A DNA stretch of 6,359 nucleotides, taken from a virus. Its lineage: Duplodnaviria > Heunggongvirae > Uroviricota > Caudoviricetes. The position numbers and the translations under genes were made by a program. The notes beneath the pieces were generated by a model. It was not told where the DNA came from, ran no database searches, and saw only the letters and a program-made list of their open reading frames with translations. Within the stretch, counting starts at the first letter, position 1. Every line of letters begins with the position of its first letter. The stretch lies in the IMG/VR virus record IMGVR_UViG_2619619134_000014. The stretch is one strand, 5' to 3'. Positions 1 through 6,359 of the stretch are shown piece after piece.

Positions 1-276
1 TTACCGACTGCGGCCTGAGTTTTTTAAGTGACGTAAAATCGTGTTGAGGCCAACGCCCATAATGCGGGCTGTTGCCCGGCATCCAACGCCATTCATGGCC
101 ATATCAATGATTTTCTGGTGCGTACCGGGTTGAGAAGCGGTGTAAGTGAACTGCAGTTGCCATGTTTTACGGCAGTGAGAGCAGAGATAGCGCTGATGTC
201 CGGCGGTGCTTTTGCCGTTACGCACCACCCCGTCAGTAGCTGAACAGGAGGGACAGCTGATAGAAACAGAAGCCAC
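1..276 (-). CDS. insA: IS1 InsA protein (91 aa)
   Basis: Translation [91 protein letters not shown] matches IS1 InsA from memory, including the zinc-finger-like CxxC...CxxC N-terminus and the HTH region. Confidence 0.95.
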
Positions 277-308
277 TGGAGCACCTCAAAAACACCATCA
301 TACACTAA

Positions 309-331
309 ATCAGTAAGTTGGCAGCATCACC
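309..331 (-). repeat. IS1 terminal inverted repeat (about 23 bp)
   Basis: Reverse complement of 309..331 is GGTGATGCTGCCAACTTACTGAT, matching the IS1 terminal inverted repeat as recalled. The transition to non-IS sequence is at 331/332. Confidence 0.85.
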
Positions 332-498
332 CGATGAACCATGAGAACGTCGTTGACGATGGCGTGCATTTTCCCGTCTTTATCATCAACGTATTTTCTG
401 ACCGTACCGCGACTACATTTCAGTCTGCGTGCTACTTCTGTCTGGTTTCCGTATGCTTCAACGAGCATGTCTGGAATGGTTTTTACTGAGAACGTCAT
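332..498 (-). pseudogene. ninH: ninH homologue, 3'-truncated by the IS1 insertion (first 56 codons intact)
   Basis: ORF 310..498 begins [56 protein letters not shown], matching lambda NinH (68 aa, from memory) up to residue 56. It then continues as VMLPTY-stop, which is encoded by IS1 terminal sequence. The ATG at 498 overlaps the ninG stop (ATGA). Confidence 0.8.
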
Positions 499-1106
499 GC
501 GGCCTCACTTCTGCTATTTCGCAGGTCTTTGAGTTTCTGCTGATACTCCGCCTTGATGGCCCTGCACTCTTCGACAGTCCAACGATGGCGGCTATGGTTT
601 GATTCGATTTCGTCTACTGCTTCCTGCCCGATGCGGCTAATCAGTTCGACGCGATACGGAACGAGATTTCCGCTTTTGTGCTGGTTGCACACCACGCATT
701 GCTTGTGAATATTGCGTTCATCAAATCGGAGTTGAGGTGCCGCAGCAGTTGTCCGGTAATGTCCGGCATCCCACTGAGCAGACGTGAGCGTTCCGCACGA
801 GATACATGGTAAGTCGCGGTCTCTTTCTCTGATGAAGGCGTTTACGGCTTTTTGGGCTTGTTTAATCCAGTAACTGCGGGGCTTTAAGGCGAGTTTTCGA
901 ATCTTAAGTTTATCTTTCTGTTTCTGCTCCTCTCGTCGTCGTTTCTTCTCTGCTGCCTTTTCCGCTTTTTCGCGTTCTTTGCTTCGTCGTTCGAGTGCTA
1001 TCTTTGTTCCACACTCTGGAGAGCACCACCACTGATTAGCGAATGCAGGGTGAAACCATTCCCGACATTCATCGTTTTTACATCGTCTTCGCGCTGGTTT
1101 AGCCAT
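495..1106 (-). CDS. ninG: NinG/Rap recombination-promoting protein (203 aa)
   Basis: Translation [41 protein letters not shown]... with a cysteine-rich N-terminus and a central lysine/glutamate-rich segment matches lambda NinG (Rap) as recalled. The gene sits between ninF and ninH as in lambda. Confidence 0.88.
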
Positions 1107-1275
1107 CGTCTTCTTCCTCGTACATTGAGCTATTCGGATCGCTCATCAGTTCTGCGCAGCAGTGCTCACACACGTGAACTTCCAGCACATGCAGCTTCTG
1201 ACCGCAGTTAGCGCACGTTAATGCCCGCTCGACGCTTTCTTTCTGGTATTGAAGGGATTGGGATGGGCTAAGCAT
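1102..1275 (-). CDS. ninF: NinF (57 aa)
   Basis: Not in the ORF track because it is under 60 aa. Manual translation of the minus strand from ATG at 1275 gives [58 protein letters not shown]-stop, with two CxxC pairs, matching lambda NinF as recalled. Its 3' end overlaps the ninG start. Confidence 0.82.
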
Positions 1276-1636
1276 TATTGGCGTCCTGAATCATGAGAAA
1301 TACAATCATGGCTGCGCGGAGAGGCGATTCACCGCAGAAGCAGTAGTCAGGAACCCAACAACCTTCCTCTAAATCACCTCCTGACCATGCGCACCATTCT
1401 TTTTCCGCTGTCATCCACATGGTGCTAATTTTGTTTTCAGTGATGATCGGATATGCGTCAGCGGCCATATTACATGGGTCGAAATATCCGCAAGGCAAAA
1501 ACTCACCACCATCAATTCCAGCCAAGTAAACTTCTTTCTTTTCTGGATCCCAGTCGTAATTGTTTTTTCCTAGCACGATATGCGCGACTTTTAAGTTAAT
1601 TTCAAAATCACTTAACTGTGAATAATCCATGGTCAT
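1268..1636 (-). CDS. NinX-like phage protein (about 122 aa) inserted between ninE and ninF
   Basis: ORF 1268..1672 minus. The likely start is ATG at 1636 ([44 protein letters not shown]...), preceded by GAGGAA and overlapping the ninE stop (ATGA). P22-type nin regions carry a ninX gene at this position; the family assignment is from memory and is not verified by alignment. Confidence 0.55.
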
Positions 1637-1809
1637 TTCCTCGCACGTTCTCTTAGCCACCGGATATCCCACAGGTGAGCCGTGTAATTGAAGGTTTTTA
1701 CGTCAGATTCTTTTGGGATTGGCTTGCGTTTATTTCTGGAGTGTTTCGTTGGAAGGTATTTGCAGTTTTCACAGATTATGTCGGTGATACTTCGTCGCTG
1801 TCGTCTCAT
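1633..1809 (-). CDS. ninE: NinE (58 aa)
   Basis: Internal Met of ORF 1633..1854 gives [58 protein letters not shown], matching lambda NinE as recalled. The ATG at 1809 overlaps the stop of the upstream gene (ATGA). Confidence 0.8.
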
Positions 1810-2216
1810 TCGTACCTCCTGTCGGTAAATCTGACACCCTGACCAATAGCCCATGCTGTCGTGTACTCAATCAGACTTGCCATACGCTTCACACTCATCT
1901 GCGCGCTACTTTCGCGAATGTTGACGTATTCGCCTTCAAGGCCGGGCAAAACATCAGCTTCCTGCTTTGTTGCCACTGCATGACCGCTGATCAACAAAAC
2001 CTTCCATTGTTCCGGTTTTAACCATTTGCCGCACCATTGAACCTGACGTGCGATATCCGCCAGCATCGCGTGAAATTTTGCGTTCTGGTCAAGGTTGCGC
2101 TTGTAGTCAGTAATGCGGATGGTGACTGGCTTGTCTTTATCGAGTGGTGTTGCGAGGATGGCATTTATTGCAGCTTGCTGTTGTTGCTTAGTTCGGAGGA
2201 AGATTGTTTGCTTCAC
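1806..2216 (-). CDS. ninB: NinB-family (NinB/Orf-like) recombination mediator, GTG start (136 aa)
   Basis: Translation [79 protein letters not shown]... shares the conserved pattern of lambda NinB (..RSLDQNRKLWACLGDVSRQVEWHGRWL..ESWK..). AAGGAG lies 6 nt upstream of the GTG at 2216. Confidence 0.7.
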
Positions 2217-2227
2217 TGAATACTCCT

Positions 2228-2413
2228 TTATTTTTTATGCCTGTAACCCCATTCTTCCAGCAACCTTGCGGCGTACCACCCAAGAAACAAAGGAAAGAAC
2301 ATTACAATGAGATATTCCCCGCCACGGTCAATGTTCGAAATTGACCAGATTACGATGTAACCAGTGCAGGACAGGAATATTACAAACCCCAAAAAGCTAC
2401 TTCGTCGACTCAT
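2228..2413 (-). CDS. small predicted membrane protein with two hydrophobic segments (61 aa from ATG 2413; the ORF track starts 2 codons earlier at GTG 2419)
   Basis: Translation MSRRSSFLGFVIFLSCTGYIVIWSISNIDRGGEYLIVMFFPLFLGWYAARLLEEWGYRHKK has two hydrophobic stretches of about 19 residues and a basic C-terminus. AAGGAG lies 5 nt upstream of ATG 2413, and the stop of the upstream gene (TGA 2416-2418) sits between that SD and the ATG. No family recognised. Confidence 0.5.
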   Translation of the reverse strand: MSRRSSFLGFVIFLSCTGYIVIWSISNIDRGGEYLIVMFFPLFLGWYAARLLEEWGYRHKK

Positions 2414-2415
2414 GC

Positions 2416-2742
2416 TCACTCCTTCACTTTGATTCCAGCAGCGCGGATGTTTTCCTCATAAGCATCCATTGCATCACCGAAGCCATTGGAATAATCAACA
2501 GTAAACCCTTTGGCTAATGCTTCTCTGCTGTCGATAAACTTTGGCGCGGTTATTTCAATAGCTGCTCGCGATGCCTGCCACGTTTGCCAGTGGCCTTGAA
2601 CATCGTCCATCACGTATTGACCACCAATATTACCGCTGCCAATTTCATGGTGATTTTCAGGGTAACGGATAAGGTCTGAAGATTCGCCTCCACGTCGCAA
2701 CCAACTTTCTTCAAACTGGCATCTGCTTTCGTCATCTTTCAT
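2416..2742 (-). CDS. hypothetical phage protein, probably N-terminally truncated (108 aa from ATG 2742; the frame stays open upstream to 2820 with no start codon)
   Basis: ORF 2416..2742 minus (MKDDESRCQFEESWLRRGGESSDLIRYPENHHEIGSGNIGGQYVMDDVQGHW...). The same frame is open for a further 26 codons upstream (YAAFNSAVGGGSTPWGEPIFIECDCL) with no ATG, GTG or TTG, and there is no Shine-Dalgarno before ATG 2742. This suggests the true N-terminus was lost at the junction near 2820. Family not recognised. Confidence 0.45.
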   Translation of the reverse strand: MKDDESRCQFEESWLRRGGESSDLIRYPENHHEIGSGNIGGQYVMDDVQGHWQTWQASRAAIEITAPKFIDSREALAKGFTVDYSNGFGDAMDAYEENIRAAGIKVKE

Positions 2743-2820
2743 AAGGCAGTCACATTCAATAAAAATCGGCTCTCCCCAAGGAGTAGAACCTCCGCCAACG
2801 GCGGAGTTGAATGCGGCATA

Positions 2821-3309
2821 TCAATCAAGATTGATTCCGAATGGGTAACCAAATGGGATGCTGCTGAAAACACGCAGGTAGAAGCCGTCAAAGGTGGTCG
2901 TTCCGGTGCAATGAAGCGCGCTGCCGTTCAGTGGGGAATCGGTCGGTATCTGTATAACCTTGAGGAAGGTTTCGCACAAACATCTCTCGACAAAAAGCAG
3001 GGATGGCACAGGGCAAAACTCAAGGATGGAACAGGATTTTACTGGCTCCCTCCATCGCTGCCGGGCTGGGCAATCCCAGCATCAGATAACAAACCATCAC
3101 CAGAAAATACCAACCAGAAATCTCCATCGGTTGACTGCGAACAAATCCTGAAAGACTTCAGCGATTATGCAGCGACAGAAACTGACAAGAAAAAACTCAT
3201 CGAGCGTTATCAGCGTGACTGGCAATTAATGGCTGGCAATGAGGATGCGCAGGCTAAATGCGTTCAGGTAATGAACATCAGAGTTAACGAGCTAAAACAG
3301 GCGGCATAA
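2821..3309 (+). pseudogene. erf: C-terminal fragment of a Rad52/Erf-like single-strand annealing protein (ORF from Met 2911 is 132 aa; protein-like frame is open from about 2821)
   Basis: The frame reads ...AVKGGRSGAMKRAAVQWGIGRYLY..., resembling the conserved KRA..FG.G motif region of Rad52/Sak-type annealing proteins. The C-terminus (CEQILKDFSDYAATETDKKKLIERYQRDWQLMAGNEDAQAKCVQVMNIRVNELKQAA) closely resembles the P22 Erf C-terminus as I recall it. The 150 or so residues that should precede the motif are absent, and upstream in-frame sequence before about 2821 is not protein-like. Confidence 0.6.
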
Positions 3310-3825
3310 ATGGCAAGCAGAGGCGTAAATAAGGTGATCATTATTGGTCGCCTTGGGCATGATCCAGAAATCAGATATTCACCATCAGGAACGGCATTTG
3401 CAAACCTTACAGTTGCTACGTCAGAACAATGGCGTGATAAGCAAACTGGAGAGCAAAAGGAGCAGACGGAGTGGCACCGCGTGGTAATGAGCGGGAAACT
3501 GGCAGAAATTGCCAGCGAATATCTGCGAAAAGGCTCTGAGGTTTATCTTGAAGGAAAATTGCGGACAAGAAAATGGCAGGATCAAAGCGGACAGGATAGG
3601 TTCACTACCGAAGTCATCGTGGGCGTTGGTGGAACCATGCAAATGCTTGGTGGCAAGCAAGGAGGCAATGAACAGTCTTCACCTCAGCGAAATAACGGTC
3701 AGCAACAAAGACAGCAATCTCAGCAGCAGGGGAATCACAGCGAACCACCTATGGATTTTGACGACGATATACCCTTTGCACCAGTAACTCTCCCCTTCCC
3801 TCGTCACGCTATTCACGCAATTTAA
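3310..3825 (+). CDS. ssb: single-stranded DNA-binding protein, phage-type, with a 15-residue extension beyond the canonical DDDIPF C-terminus (171 aa)
   Basis: Translation [115 protein letters not shown]... is near-collinear with E. coli SSB (OB fold, Gly/Gln-rich linker, [10 protein letters not shown] tail). The ATG at 3310 directly follows the erf stop (TAAATG). Confidence 0.95.
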
Positions 3826-3838
3826 TCAGGAGAAAATC

Positions 3839-4132
3839 ATGCCAGCGCCTCTGTATGGTGCGGACGACGCGCGCCGCTGTTCCGGCAATTCCGTATCAGA
3901 GGTGCTGGATAAATTCAGAAAAAACTACGATCGGATAATGTCGCTACCGCAGGAAACGAAAGAGGAAAAGGAATTTCGCCATTGTATATGGCTTGCAGAG
4001 AAAGAAGAACGCGAGCGGATTTACCAGACATCAATCCGACCATTCCGCAAAGCCACATATACCCACTTCCCTGAAATTGACCCGCGCCTGCGTAATTATC
4101 GATCACGCTATGGCGCTATCAGTAATGACTGA
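3839..4132 (+). CDS. hypothetical small phage protein (97 aa); possibly Abc2-like anti-RecBCD, unverified
   Basis: ORF with AGGAG 6 nt upstream of ATG 3839. Translation [97 protein letters not shown]. Its size and position downstream of the recombination genes are reminiscent of P22 abc2, but I cannot confirm sequence identity from memory. Confidence 0.6.
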
Positions 4133-4142
4133 GGAATTTACC

Positions 4143-4310
4143 ATGAGAGGACTTGCATACAATCCCGGCATTCTTCCGGCAGAAATGATTATTCGCCAAC
4201 GCGTAAAGCCAATGCCATCGAGAGAGGAATTGCTTAAAAGGAAGAGTTTCGGTTCTGTTAATGACAACAAATATCTGAATGCGATGTGGCGTAAAGGAGG
4301 CAAGCAGTGA
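4143..4310 (+). CDS. hypothetical small basic protein (55 aa)
   Basis: Internal ATG 4143 of track ORF 3993..4310, chosen because GAGGA lies 7 nt upstream and it starts just after the stop of the preceding gene. Translation [55 protein letters not shown]. Its stop overlaps the next gene's GTG start. Confidence 0.5.
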
Positions 4311-4606
4311 GTGTATGTCTTATTGATAAACGTCGACGTGGGCAACAAATACCATCTGTTGGAATGCCGAATCACACATGGTTTTGCGTACTTGATATCG
4401 ATGGTATGGATGCGTTGGTTGACACTCGTCATTACTGCGATACCGCAACAGCTACTCCGGCGAAAGCAAAGAAAATGGCTGCTCTGATAGAAAACTGGAC
4501 TCCACCTGATGGTTGGTGCAATGGGAATGATCGAGATTGGCATGAAAAAATGAAGGGCTATATCTGCGATTTCTTACGTAAATGCAACGGCTTCAGGGTG
4601 ATGTGA
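4307..4606 (+). CDS. hypothetical phage protein (99 aa, GTG start)
   Basis: AAAGGAGG lies 6 nt upstream of GTG 4307, which overlaps the upstream stop (GTGA). Translation [99 protein letters not shown]. No family recognised. Confidence 0.5.
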
Positions 4607-4607
4607 T

Positions 4608-5216
4608 ATGACCAAAATTAACTATCAGGCGCTGCGTGAAAAGGCAGAGAAAGCAACGAGTGGTGTGTGGTCGCTCGAATATGGAGAGGAGAGATTTGAT
4701 GCTGGTGATGCGCTAATTCATCGTGAAGTTGTTGGATATCTTCCCATTTGCAGAATTGAAGGAGCGCATCCTGAAAGCGGTTTCGATGAAGATTTCCAAA
4801 TGGAACAGCAGGCCAATGCTGAATTCATCGCCGCAGCCAATCCGGCTACCGTCTTGGCGCTGCTTGGCGAGCTGGAAGCAGCAAAAAAGCGCATAGCAGA
4901 ACTGGAAGCCGAACCTGTAAGCCAAACTTGCAAGTTGAACGAGCCATCGGGCAACTCTCCGGTAACTCCGGATGGTTGGGTTATAGTGCCGAAGAAACTA
5001 ACCGCTGAGAACGGCGCTAAGGGTGTGCTATCCGGTGAATTTTCAGAAACTACGTTTATAAGCTGCCCGGAATGCTTTGGTGATGATGATTGCGAAACTT
5101 GTGACGGCAGCGGGAGAATCGAAATCAAGGTTCCAGTCAGTTGGACAACTATCAAAACTATTTGGGCTAAAGGGTGTGAGTACTTTTCAATAGTAGCACC
5201 GCAGCAAGATGGGTGA
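4608..5216 (+). CDS. ead/Ea22-like protein with a C-terminal double-CxxC (CxxCxGxG-like) zinc-ribbon motif (202 aa)
   Basis: The N-terminal region (MTKINYQALREKAEKATSGVWSLEY ... ANAEFIAAANPATVLALLGELEAAKKRIAELEAEP) resembles the conserved N-terminus and coiled coil of lambdoid ead/Ea22-like proteins as I recall them. The C-terminus has CPECFGDDDCETCDGSGRIE. The start at 4608 follows the upstream stop by 1 nt. Confidence 0.55.
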   Translation: MTKINYQALREKAEKATSGVWSLEYGEERFDAGDALIHREVVGYLPICRIEGAHPESGFDEDFQMEQQANAEFIAAANPATVLALLGELEAAKKRIAELEAEPVSQTCKLNEPSGNSPVTPDGWVIVPKKLTAENGAKGVLSGEFSETTFISCPECFGDDDCETCDGSGRIEIKVPVSWTTIKTIWAKGCEYFSIVAPQQDG

Positions 5217-5303
5217 TGAAAACAAGTATTTATAACTTAAAAGCATTAAAAAATCGCTTATAGATCAAAAGAAATCTACGTCAAATATTACTATATTTCA
5301 ATG

Positions 5304-5312
5304 TGTTATAAT
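5304..5312 (+). promoter_or_regulatory. putative sigma70 extended -10 promoter element (TGtTATAAT) in an AT-rich intergenic region
   Basis: TGTTATAAT at 5304..5312 is a perfect -10 hexamer with the TGn extension, about 30 nt upstream of ATG 5343. No convincing -35 is present, consistent with an extended -10 promoter. The surrounding 5217..5340 is visibly AT-rich. Confidence 0.4.
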
Positions 5313-5342
5313 TACCCCGTACATAAAATGGGGGGACACAAA

Positions 5343-5585
5343 ATGTTCAAACGCTGCATCACCAAGTGTGGAAGCACACCTGACATCCAAGCTTTTATTA
5401 ATGAAGATGGTAAGCTTGTTGTTGAGAGGAGTGGTCCTTTTATTAGCAAACAACTTATCATTACCTCTCCAGCGGAGATGGCCGGGGAATGGATAGTTTC
5501 TGAACCAGAGGAGTTGCACATCCCGCTTCCTTATGGCCCTCAGGGACTGATTTATAACCGTTATGTTCAGAAGGAGGCGGGTTGA
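5343..5585 (+). CDS. hypothetical small protein (80 aa), moron-like
   Basis: Internal ATG of track ORF 5301..5585, with a G-rich SD-like GGGGGG about 7 nt upstream. Translation MFKRCITKCGSTPDIQAFINEDGKLVVERSGPFISKQLIITSPAEMAGEWIVSEPEELHIPLPYGPQGLIYNRYVQKEAG. No family recognised. Confidence 0.5.
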   Translation: MFKRCITKCGSTPDIQAFINEDGKLVVERSGPFISKQLIITSPAEMAGEWIVSEPEELHIPLPYGPQGLIYNRYVQKEAG

Positions 5586-5661
5586 CAATGTCAGGCATAA
5601 CATCGCCGAGAAATCGAAAGAAAAACAGAACAAGGTAAACGTTGACCTTGCAGCATCAGGC

Positions 5662-5844
5662 ATGGAGTACAGAGAGCGCCTTAACATACCTGTTATCACT
5701 GAGCAGGTATCATGAGAGCAACCTGAGCACTCACGCGAGTATTTCATGGAGCGCATCAGATACTATCGCGAGCAGTCGTTAAACATGCCCAAGGGAAGCA
5801 ACCCATGGTATATCGATATGGATGAACAGAACGCCAAGAAGTAA
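5662..5844 (+). pseudogene. small ORF interrupted by an in-frame TGA at 5713..5715 (about 60 codons if read through); candidate decayed gene
   Basis: Manual translation of one frame gives MEYRERLNIPVITEQVS-stop-EQPEHSREYFMERIRYYREQSLNMPKGSNPWYIDMDEQNAKK-stop. The same frame is open back to 5551. A second frame carries AAGGAGG (5571-5577) followed by ATG 5588 encoding only 16 basic residues (MSGITSPRNRKKNRTR). An intrinsic terminator follows. Confidence 0.35.
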
Positions 5845-5864
5845 ACGCAATTTGAACGAATGCG

Positions 5865-5890
5865 AACCCGCCGAGTGCGGGTTTTCTTTT
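5865..5890 (+). terminator. putative Rho-independent terminator
   Basis: AACCCGC (5865-5871), loop CGAGT, GCGGGTT (5877-5883), followed by TTTCTTTT. This is a 7-bp GC-rich stem with a T-rich tail, 20 nt after the TAA at 5842-5844. Confidence 0.6.
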
Positions 5891-5933
5891 ATCTGAACTC
5901 GCTACGGCTAGTTTTGTTTTATGGAGATGATAA

Positions 5934-6101
5934 ATGCACTTCCGAGTCACAGGTGAATGGAATGGAGAACCATTCAACAGAGTTATCGAAGCGGAGAACA
6001 TCAACGACTGCTATGACCACTGGATGATATGGGCGCAGATAGCGCATGCAGACGTAACCAATATTCGAATTGAAGAACTGAAAGAACACCAAGCCGCCTG
6101 A
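5934..6101 (+). CDS. hypothetical small protein (55 aa)
   Basis: Below the ORF-track size cutoff; found manually. GGAG lies 7 nt upstream of ATG 5934. Translation MHFRVTGEWNGEPFNRVIEAENINDCYDHWMIWAQIAHADVTNIRIEELKEHQAA. It is flanked by intrinsic terminators on both sides. Confidence 0.55.
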   Translation: MHFRVTGEWNGEPFNRVIEAENINDCYDHWMIWAQIAHADVTNIRIEELKEHQAA

Positions 6102-6114
6102 TGGCGGTTTTTTA
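6093..6114 (+). terminator. putative Rho-independent terminator overlapping the stop codon of the 55-aa gene
   Basis: GCCGCC (6093-6098), loop TGAT, GGCGG (6103-6107), followed by TTTTTTATT. The TGA stop (6099-6101) lies in the loop. Confidence 0.6.
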
Positions 6115-6158
6115 TTGCCTGATTTGCAGGTTCGATTCCCTATTCGGAGATAGCACTC

Positions 6159-6359
6159 ATGCAACACGAACTACAACCTGATTCACTGGTTGATTTGAAA
6201 TTCATCATGGCTGATACTGGCTTCGGTAAGACCTTCATCTATGACCGGATTAAGTCCGGCGACCTGCCAAAAGCCAAAGTTATCCACGGGCGAGCAAGAT
6301 GGTTATATCGTGACCATTGTGAATTCAAAAATAAGCTCTTAAGCCGCGCCAATGGGTAA
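6159..6359 (+). CDS. alpA: AlpA-family phage regulatory protein / excisionase-like DNA-binding protein (66 aa)
   Basis: Translation MQHELQPDSLVDLKFIMADTGFGKTFIYDRIKSGDLPKAKVIHGRARWLYRDHCEFKNKLLSRANG fits the AlpA/Vis-type helix-turn-helix pattern (..TG.S..TIY..I..G.FP.P.K.G.R...W.). GGAG lies 9 nt upstream of the ATG. Confidence 0.72.
   Translation: MQHELQPDSLVDLKFIMADTGFGKTFIYDRIKSGDLPKAKVIHGRARWLYRDHCEFKNKLLSRANG

Follow-up and report, generated by a model that had tools for sequence, protein, structure and literature searches.

TorI was first discovered as an inhibitor of the response regulator TorR (PMC3509656). It is the directionality factor (RDF) of the prophage KplE1 and is needed to steer IntS recombination to excision on KplE1 or HK620 substrates (Panis et al. 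2010, PMC2951348). TorI, HkaC of phage HK620 and P18 of phage Sf6 were stated to be 100% identical (PMC3509656). Its winged helix binds five sites on attL cooperatively, IntS and TorR compete for contact with its C-terminal part, and the protein is stabilised by DnaJ (PMC3509656). The five sites are arranged in two blocks on attL, where the IntS arm-type (P') sites share a conserved TAAA motif (PMC2951348). attL overlaps with the intS promoter, at which both IntS and TorI act as repressors, so that excision is controlled solely by torI expression; the torI promoter itself, PtorI, was called 'non-characterized' (PMC2951348). According to works that cite Menouni 2013, the KplE1 region of K-12 increases in copy number when Rho is inhibited. 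The torI gene, its structure and binding sites, its partner integrase, the split layout, the core and the regulation have all been published already (Panis et al. 2010, 2012), and the locus described here is another copy of a module found in roughly half of complete E. coli genomes.

We analysed a stretch of 6,359 nucleotides, henceforth referred to as the window. Its last gene and the sequence just before that gene were assigned as follows.

6159 to 6359, plus strand: torI, assigned from the open reading frame, the identity to 1Z4H, the torI annotation in E. coli genomes, HK620 and Sf6, the match to phrog_66, and the AlphaFold (AF2) model searched with Foldseek.
6147 to 6150, plus strand: GGAG, a putative Shine-Dalgarno-like motif 8 nt before the torI ATG, identified by direct reading.

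Both the list of open reading frames and a direct reading of the sequence gave an ATG-to-TAA frame of 66 codons, the stop codon being the final three bases of the window. The product is identical at 66 out of 66 residues to the 'Tor inhibition protein' (TorI) of PDB entry 1Z4H (E = 6.6e-43). This is far beyond chance, so the open reading frame is a genuine known gene, and the original prediction that it encodes an excisionase (RDF) is confirmed. In E. coli genomes the gene is annotated as 'response regulator inhibitor TorI', and a query covering positions 5300-6359, which includes torI, was matched in about 2,959 of 5,426 complete E. coli genomes. At the DNA level, torI is 98.4-98.7% identical to hkaC of HK620 and to gene 18 of Shigella phage Sf6, and the final 306 nt of the window are 98.7% identical to HK620. 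The gene closes a plus-strand series (truncated erf, ssb, abc2, DUF2737, DUF7739, ead/Ea22 ... torI) that is the counterpart of the leftward early operon of HK620 and Sf6. We are highly confident that positions 6159 to 6359 are torI, the RDF/excisionase of a KplE1/CPS-53-type prophage remnant at the argW tRNA-Arg(CCU) gene of an E. coli-type chromosome.

The gene product had also been assigned to the AlpA family, and this assignment holds in part. TorI scored 12.7 bits (E = 0.12) with Pfam Phage_AlpA (PF05930), for which the gathering threshold is 21, and 16.9 bits with HTH_17, for which the cutoff is 27; both scores are sub-threshold. The control proteins AlpA and P4 Vis scored 83.9 and 73.1 bits with Phage_AlpA. 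An NCBIfam scan of the 66-aa protein returned nothing meaningful, its sole match being a spurious 13-bit hit to bactofencin. Among the PHROGs, TorI falls into phrog_66, 'excisionase and transcriptional regulator' (E = 2.7e-8), which is also matched over the same profile region by Vis of P4 (4e-15) and AlpA of CP4-57 (7e-5). Lambda Xis was placed in phrog_629 and in Pfam Exc (PF07825), and the Pfam scan of TorI gave no match to Exc. We used a profile of 26 TorI relatives, which were drawn from a tight Enterobacterales clade. With hhalign, this profile aligned to AlpA and Vis at 84% probability (E = 7.4e-6, 48 columns, with a target profile of two sequences only) and to lambda Xis at 1% probability. 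Compared with the PDB sequences, it matched none besides 1Z4H. BLASTP of TorI against AlpA gave a 20-residue match only. The AlphaFold model has a winged-helix fold (pLDDT 86), and its top Foldseek match is 1Z4H, an entry titled 'TorI belongs to a new family of atypical excisionase'. The next matches are MerR-type winged-HTH domains and excisionases of islands and ICEs (GIsul2 Xis 8C3T, RdfS 8DGL, 2KVV). The label 'excisionase' is thus right, and 'AlpA-family' is loose: Pfam membership is not supported, and a relation to AlpA is defensible only as remote homology.

The same similarities could be read as evidence that TorI is an AlpA-type activator of a neighbouring integrase gene, comparable to AlpA acting on intA in CP4-57, and not a directionality factor. 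Several sources name TorI relatives 'AlpA family', the three proteins share phrog_66, and the hhalign result links their families. However, the Phage_AlpA score is below threshold, intS is not adjacent to torI in the prophage, and the identical protein represses intS and is needed for excision in vitro and in vivo (PMC2951348, PMC3509656). We regard an activator role as extremely unlikely and treat TorI as the excisionase.

To describe the sequence past the window end we used near-identical genomes, namely a 5.04-Mb chromosome (L004), which differs from the window by one mismatch, and L001, L003, L005 and L008, which are 100% identical over the shared region. The attachment region begins within the last bases of the window, since the first IntS arm-type repeat starts at 6354.

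6354 to 6359, plus strand: the opening 6 nt of an IntS arm-type repeat, GGGTAAAAT, the first in the attR P arm; the repeat shares bases with the final Gly codon and stop codon of torI and continues past the window end.

Repeats of GGGTAAAAT are located in L004 at 11747 and 11759, equivalent to window positions 6354 and 6366, and the HK620 annotation marks the same 23 nt as an attP repeat that extends over the end of hkaC. At the intS end, the 3' end of the argW tRNA-Arg(CCU) gene forms the 16-nt core CTGCAGGGGACACCAT (L005 4206). A second copy lies 74-89 nt past the torI stop codon, at 11826-11841 in L004 and L005 (window equivalent 6433-6448). The core and the arrangement attL-intS / torI-attR both agree with the published description (PMC2951348). 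The sequence from torI to the core is that of the HK620 attP P arm with two mismatches, and host DNA directly follows the core. At the attL end, host tRNA sequence extends to the core, beyond which come the HK620 P' arm and intS. The attL sequence contains five TorI-site motifs in two blocks, the first at L005 4228 and 4248 (GTTCG, GTCCG) and the second at 4291, 4301 and 4311 (GTTCG, GTTCG, GATCG); these sites are recorded as sequence motifs and agree with those published (PMC2951348). Judging from these genomes, the DNA beyond the window end would be expected to begin with GGGTAAAATATTTC, to reach CTGCAGGGGACACCAT at +74-89 and then to pass into host DNA on the dsdC side.

The integrase gene is at the other end of the element. 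In phage HK620 the order is hkaC(torI)-attP(core)-int, and int starts 250 nt after the torI stop codon. With attP between the two genes, integration puts them at opposite ends of the prophage. Accordingly, intS and the tRNA gene are located about 10 kb upstream of torI in L004, and both L005 and L001 show tRNA-Arg(CCU), the core and then intS about 160 nt on. IntS sits at attL beside argW and is transcribed away from the tRNA gene, with a promoter region that overlaps attL. The K-12 prophage CPS-53 has argW-intS at one end and torI as its last annotated gene at the other, and the order in E. coli LR-27 is argW-intS ... torI-dsdC; L004 and L005 likewise have intS ... torI-dsdC. What follows torI in L004 is a series of host genes, dsdC (convergent), dsdXA, emrYK and evgAS, and this flank is 99.85% identical to LR-27. 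With IntS, lambda Int and P4 Int as queries, phmmer detected no integrase-like open reading frame within the 8.86 kb that follow torI in L004.

The original prediction therefore located the attachment site correctly and the integrase incorrectly. The attR P arm and core lie just beyond the torI coding sequence, and a tRNA gene, argW, does provide the att site, its 3' end carrying the core that recurs past torI. An integrase just beyond the window was also foreseen, and the absence of one within a few kb downstream had been named in advance as evidence to the contrary; this absence is what we found in L004. The proposal of a boundary between two adjacent mobile elements also fails, as the junction at attR is between prophage and host.

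The idea of a lambdoid prophage with a P4-type module proved right for the integrase. L004 IntS is intact, full length and identical to K-12 IntS at 382 of 385 residues. IntS is 35% identical to P4 Int from end to end (402 columns, E = 5e-77) and 33% identical to IntA of CP4-57 (E = 4e-69). It has no significant similarity to lambda Int (E = 0.034, over 48 columns only). The Pfam architecture, Arm-DNA-bind_3 with Phage_int_M and Phage_integrase, is common to IntS, P4 Int and IntA. By identity and architecture, IntS is a P4-type tyrosine integrase within an otherwise lambdoid/P22-like phage.

We then considered the state of the element. L004 covers window positions 1-6359 at 99.98% identity with a single mismatch, and this match of a chromosome to the whole window identifies the window as a decayed prophage remnant at argW. 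In a whole-window megablast search of complete E. coli RefSeq genomes and a phage collection, no record covered at least 80% of the window, and the best phage coverage was no more than 39%. L004 was one of the chromosomal contigs recovered by an exact match to the Ead/Ea22-like protein encoded in the window. The following features document the decay.

1 to 332: the end of an IS1 element, with insA at 1-276 on the minus strand and a terminal inverted repeat that ends at about 332.
310 to 498, minus strand: a ninH-like gene, its 3' end cut by IS1.
2416 to 2742, minus strand: a phiTE_015-like gene, truncated by a deletion and now 108 aa.
2911 to 3309: an erf/Rad52-like gene, truncated by the deletion and now 132 aa.

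The gene order in L004 begins with intS, gtrA, gtrB, gtr, a 335-aa open reading frame, IS1 and ninH-ninB (minus strand), and after the deletion it continues with ssb, abc2, DUF2737, DUF7739, ead/Ea22, small open reading frames, torI and then host genes. This chromosome has a complete IS1, which lies between the nin genes on one side and the 335-aa open reading frame and the gtrABC serotype-conversion genes near intS on the other. The deletion junction is at window 2795/2796 and amounts to 6.77 kb relative to the intact relative L003 (L003 1417|8189). The deletion removed the immunity and replication region, comprising the primase/helicase gene, O, cII, cro, cI, cIII and kil; pL/N is also deleted in the remnant. 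Inspection of the junction revealed no obvious microhomology.

If the window were a non-integrated phage genome, attP and an integrase gene would follow within about 250 nt of torI, as they do in HK620, to which the last 306 nt are so similar. The truncation of ninH by IS1 speaks against this, as does the deletion, which took cI, cro, cII, O, the primase/helicase gene, cIII, kil and part of erf and means that the window cannot be a viable phage. Phage records cover too little of the window, and its sole whole-window match is the 5.04-Mb chromosome, where attR and dsdC come after torI. A free phage is therefore very improbable, and we retain the reading as an integrated, decayed remnant.

Additional signs of change were observed in the region before torI and in related chromosomes. 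Positions 5563-5844 encode a prophage-borne, holE-like homologue of the DNA polymerase III theta subunit (Pfam DNA_pol3_theta) with an internal stop codon at 5713-5715, and in the identical DNA of LR-27 this holE-like gene is annotated as a pseudogene. Five related chromosomes (L006, L009 and L011, and also L010 and L012) match the window only to 6029 and are without torI, attR and all or part of dsdC. In some of these dsdX comes directly next, and in others dsdC is shortened to 198 aa. Loss of the torI/attR end in these chromosomes means that one excision end is gone, which would lock the remnant in place.

The published work suggests how the module would operate in this copy. The phage form torI-attP-intS is split upon integration to give argW/attL-intS ... 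torI-attR-dsdC, with the window stopping inside the attR P arm and the core 74-89 nt further on. TorI, as a small winged-helix protein, would bind cooperatively at the opposite prophage end, where attL carries the five GTTCG-type sites. Its C-terminal part would contact IntS and, together with host factors, promote attL x attR excision. TorI binding, together with IntS, would also repress the intS promoter that overlaps attL, and binding of TorI to the response regulator TorR would inhibit torCAD expression. Excision activity, DNA binding and TorR inhibition are published for the identical protein, and we infer that they carry over to this copy. With intS, torI and both cores intact, as in K-12 KplE1, the remnant may still be excisable.

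A different view of the retained gene is that the host has domesticated torI, which would be kept chiefly as an anti-TorR regulator and for which excision would no longer be the relevant role. The discovery of TorI as a TorR inhibitor fits this view, as does its perfect conservation in remnants without lytic genes. The present remnant has neither pL/N nor a repressor and thus no induction circuit. However, torI is still accompanied by intact copies of intS, the two att cores, the arm-type repeats and the five TorI sites, which argues that the whole recombination module was retained and not torI alone. The equally decayed KplE1 of K-12 still excises when TorI is given (PMC2951348). L006, L009 and L011 lost torI, attR and dsdC together, so torI is dispensable. 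We consider domestication as the main reason for its retention quite unlikely, and favour retention of torI as the excisionase of an intact recombination module.

Four features that bear on the expression of torI or on its leader precede the gene.

5864 to 5884, plus strand: an intrinsic-terminator-like hairpin with a T-run, from a terminator scan.
6091 to 6110, plus strand: an intrinsic-terminator-like hairpin with a T-run, of putative function, between an upstream 55-aa open reading frame and torI.
6109 to 6158, plus strand: the conserved torI leader, common to K-12 KplE1 and HK620 and the presumed site of PtorI.
6124 to 6139, plus strand: 16-nt TTGCAGGTTCGATTCC, a copy of the argW T-arm and the longest exact match between argW and the window.

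Upstream of torI, identity begins at window 6109 in the comparison with K-12 and at 6054 in that with HK620, and the start of the leader is the left edge of the conserved recombination module. A scan of positions 5700-6359 for sigma-70 consensus promoters found no site. The HK620 annotation includes a predicted cII-dependent promoter in the torI leader, at TTGC-N5-TTGC. The terminator scan returned 4 sites, compared with 0.5 expected from shuffled sequences, and both hairpins listed above are within 300 nt 5' of torI. An intact phage would need N antitermination to pass these two hairpins, and N is deleted here. Given the pL/N deletion, torI is probably silent or weakly expressed in the remnant.

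Within the leader, TTGCAGGTTCGATTCC is identical to the argW T-arm segment directly 5' of the att core, its last C being the first base of the core. All torI loci examined, those of K-12 and HK620 among them, have it at the same offset; it lies about 294 nt from the attR core and contains a GTTCG motif of the TorI type. We found no mention of this copy in the KplE1/TorI literature examined. It might be more than a passive tRNA fossil and have a function, for instance as a TorI/IntS operator that autoregulates PtorI, or it might be a relic of the insertion of torI and the P arm into a longer tRNA-like ancestral attP; we consider such readings speculative and rather unlikely.

The locus matters little as a discovery, and its practical value is for annotation logic. 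In the widespread xis-attP-int class of tRNA-inserted prophages, an excisionase gene at the edge marks attR and the junction with the host. The integrase and the tRNA gene should then be looked for at the opposite end, and the assumption that xis implies int next door fails predictably.

We compared the locus with the systems described above. The closest is KplE1/CPS-53 of K-12, which has the same 66-residue TorI as the last prophage gene beside attR/dsdC, the same IntS partner at argW and the same 50-nt leader. Upstream of window 6109 the sequences are unrelated, and the interiors differ: K-12 carries yfdK-yfdT, whereas the remnant carries HK620/Sf6-like nin genes, ssb, abc2 and ead/Ea22. HkaC of HK620 and gp18 of Sf6 (Lederbergvirus, P22-like) share torI and leader DNA at 98.4-98.7% identity, the attP P arm and the core, and their upstream early-left genes are similar. 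These are, however, intact phages in which int lies about 250 nt after torI, past attP, whereas the remnant has its module split by integration and is defective through IS1 and the 6.8-kb deletion. AlpA (CP4-57) and Vis (P4) are, like TorI, small winged-HTH proteins that work with P4-type integrases, but AlpA activates its integrase gene and TorI represses intS. Lambda Xis has the same role as TorI, each being a small RDF that bends DNA, binds to an att arm and makes contact with Int, and both genes are at the distal end of a leftward operon. The two proteins have no detectable sequence relationship and belong to different PHROG and Pfam families. Their targets differ, TorI binding to attL and lambda Xis to attR (PMC3509656). 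In lambda the order is attP-int-xis, and int and xis stay adjacent in the prophage; in the torI module attP lies between xis and int.
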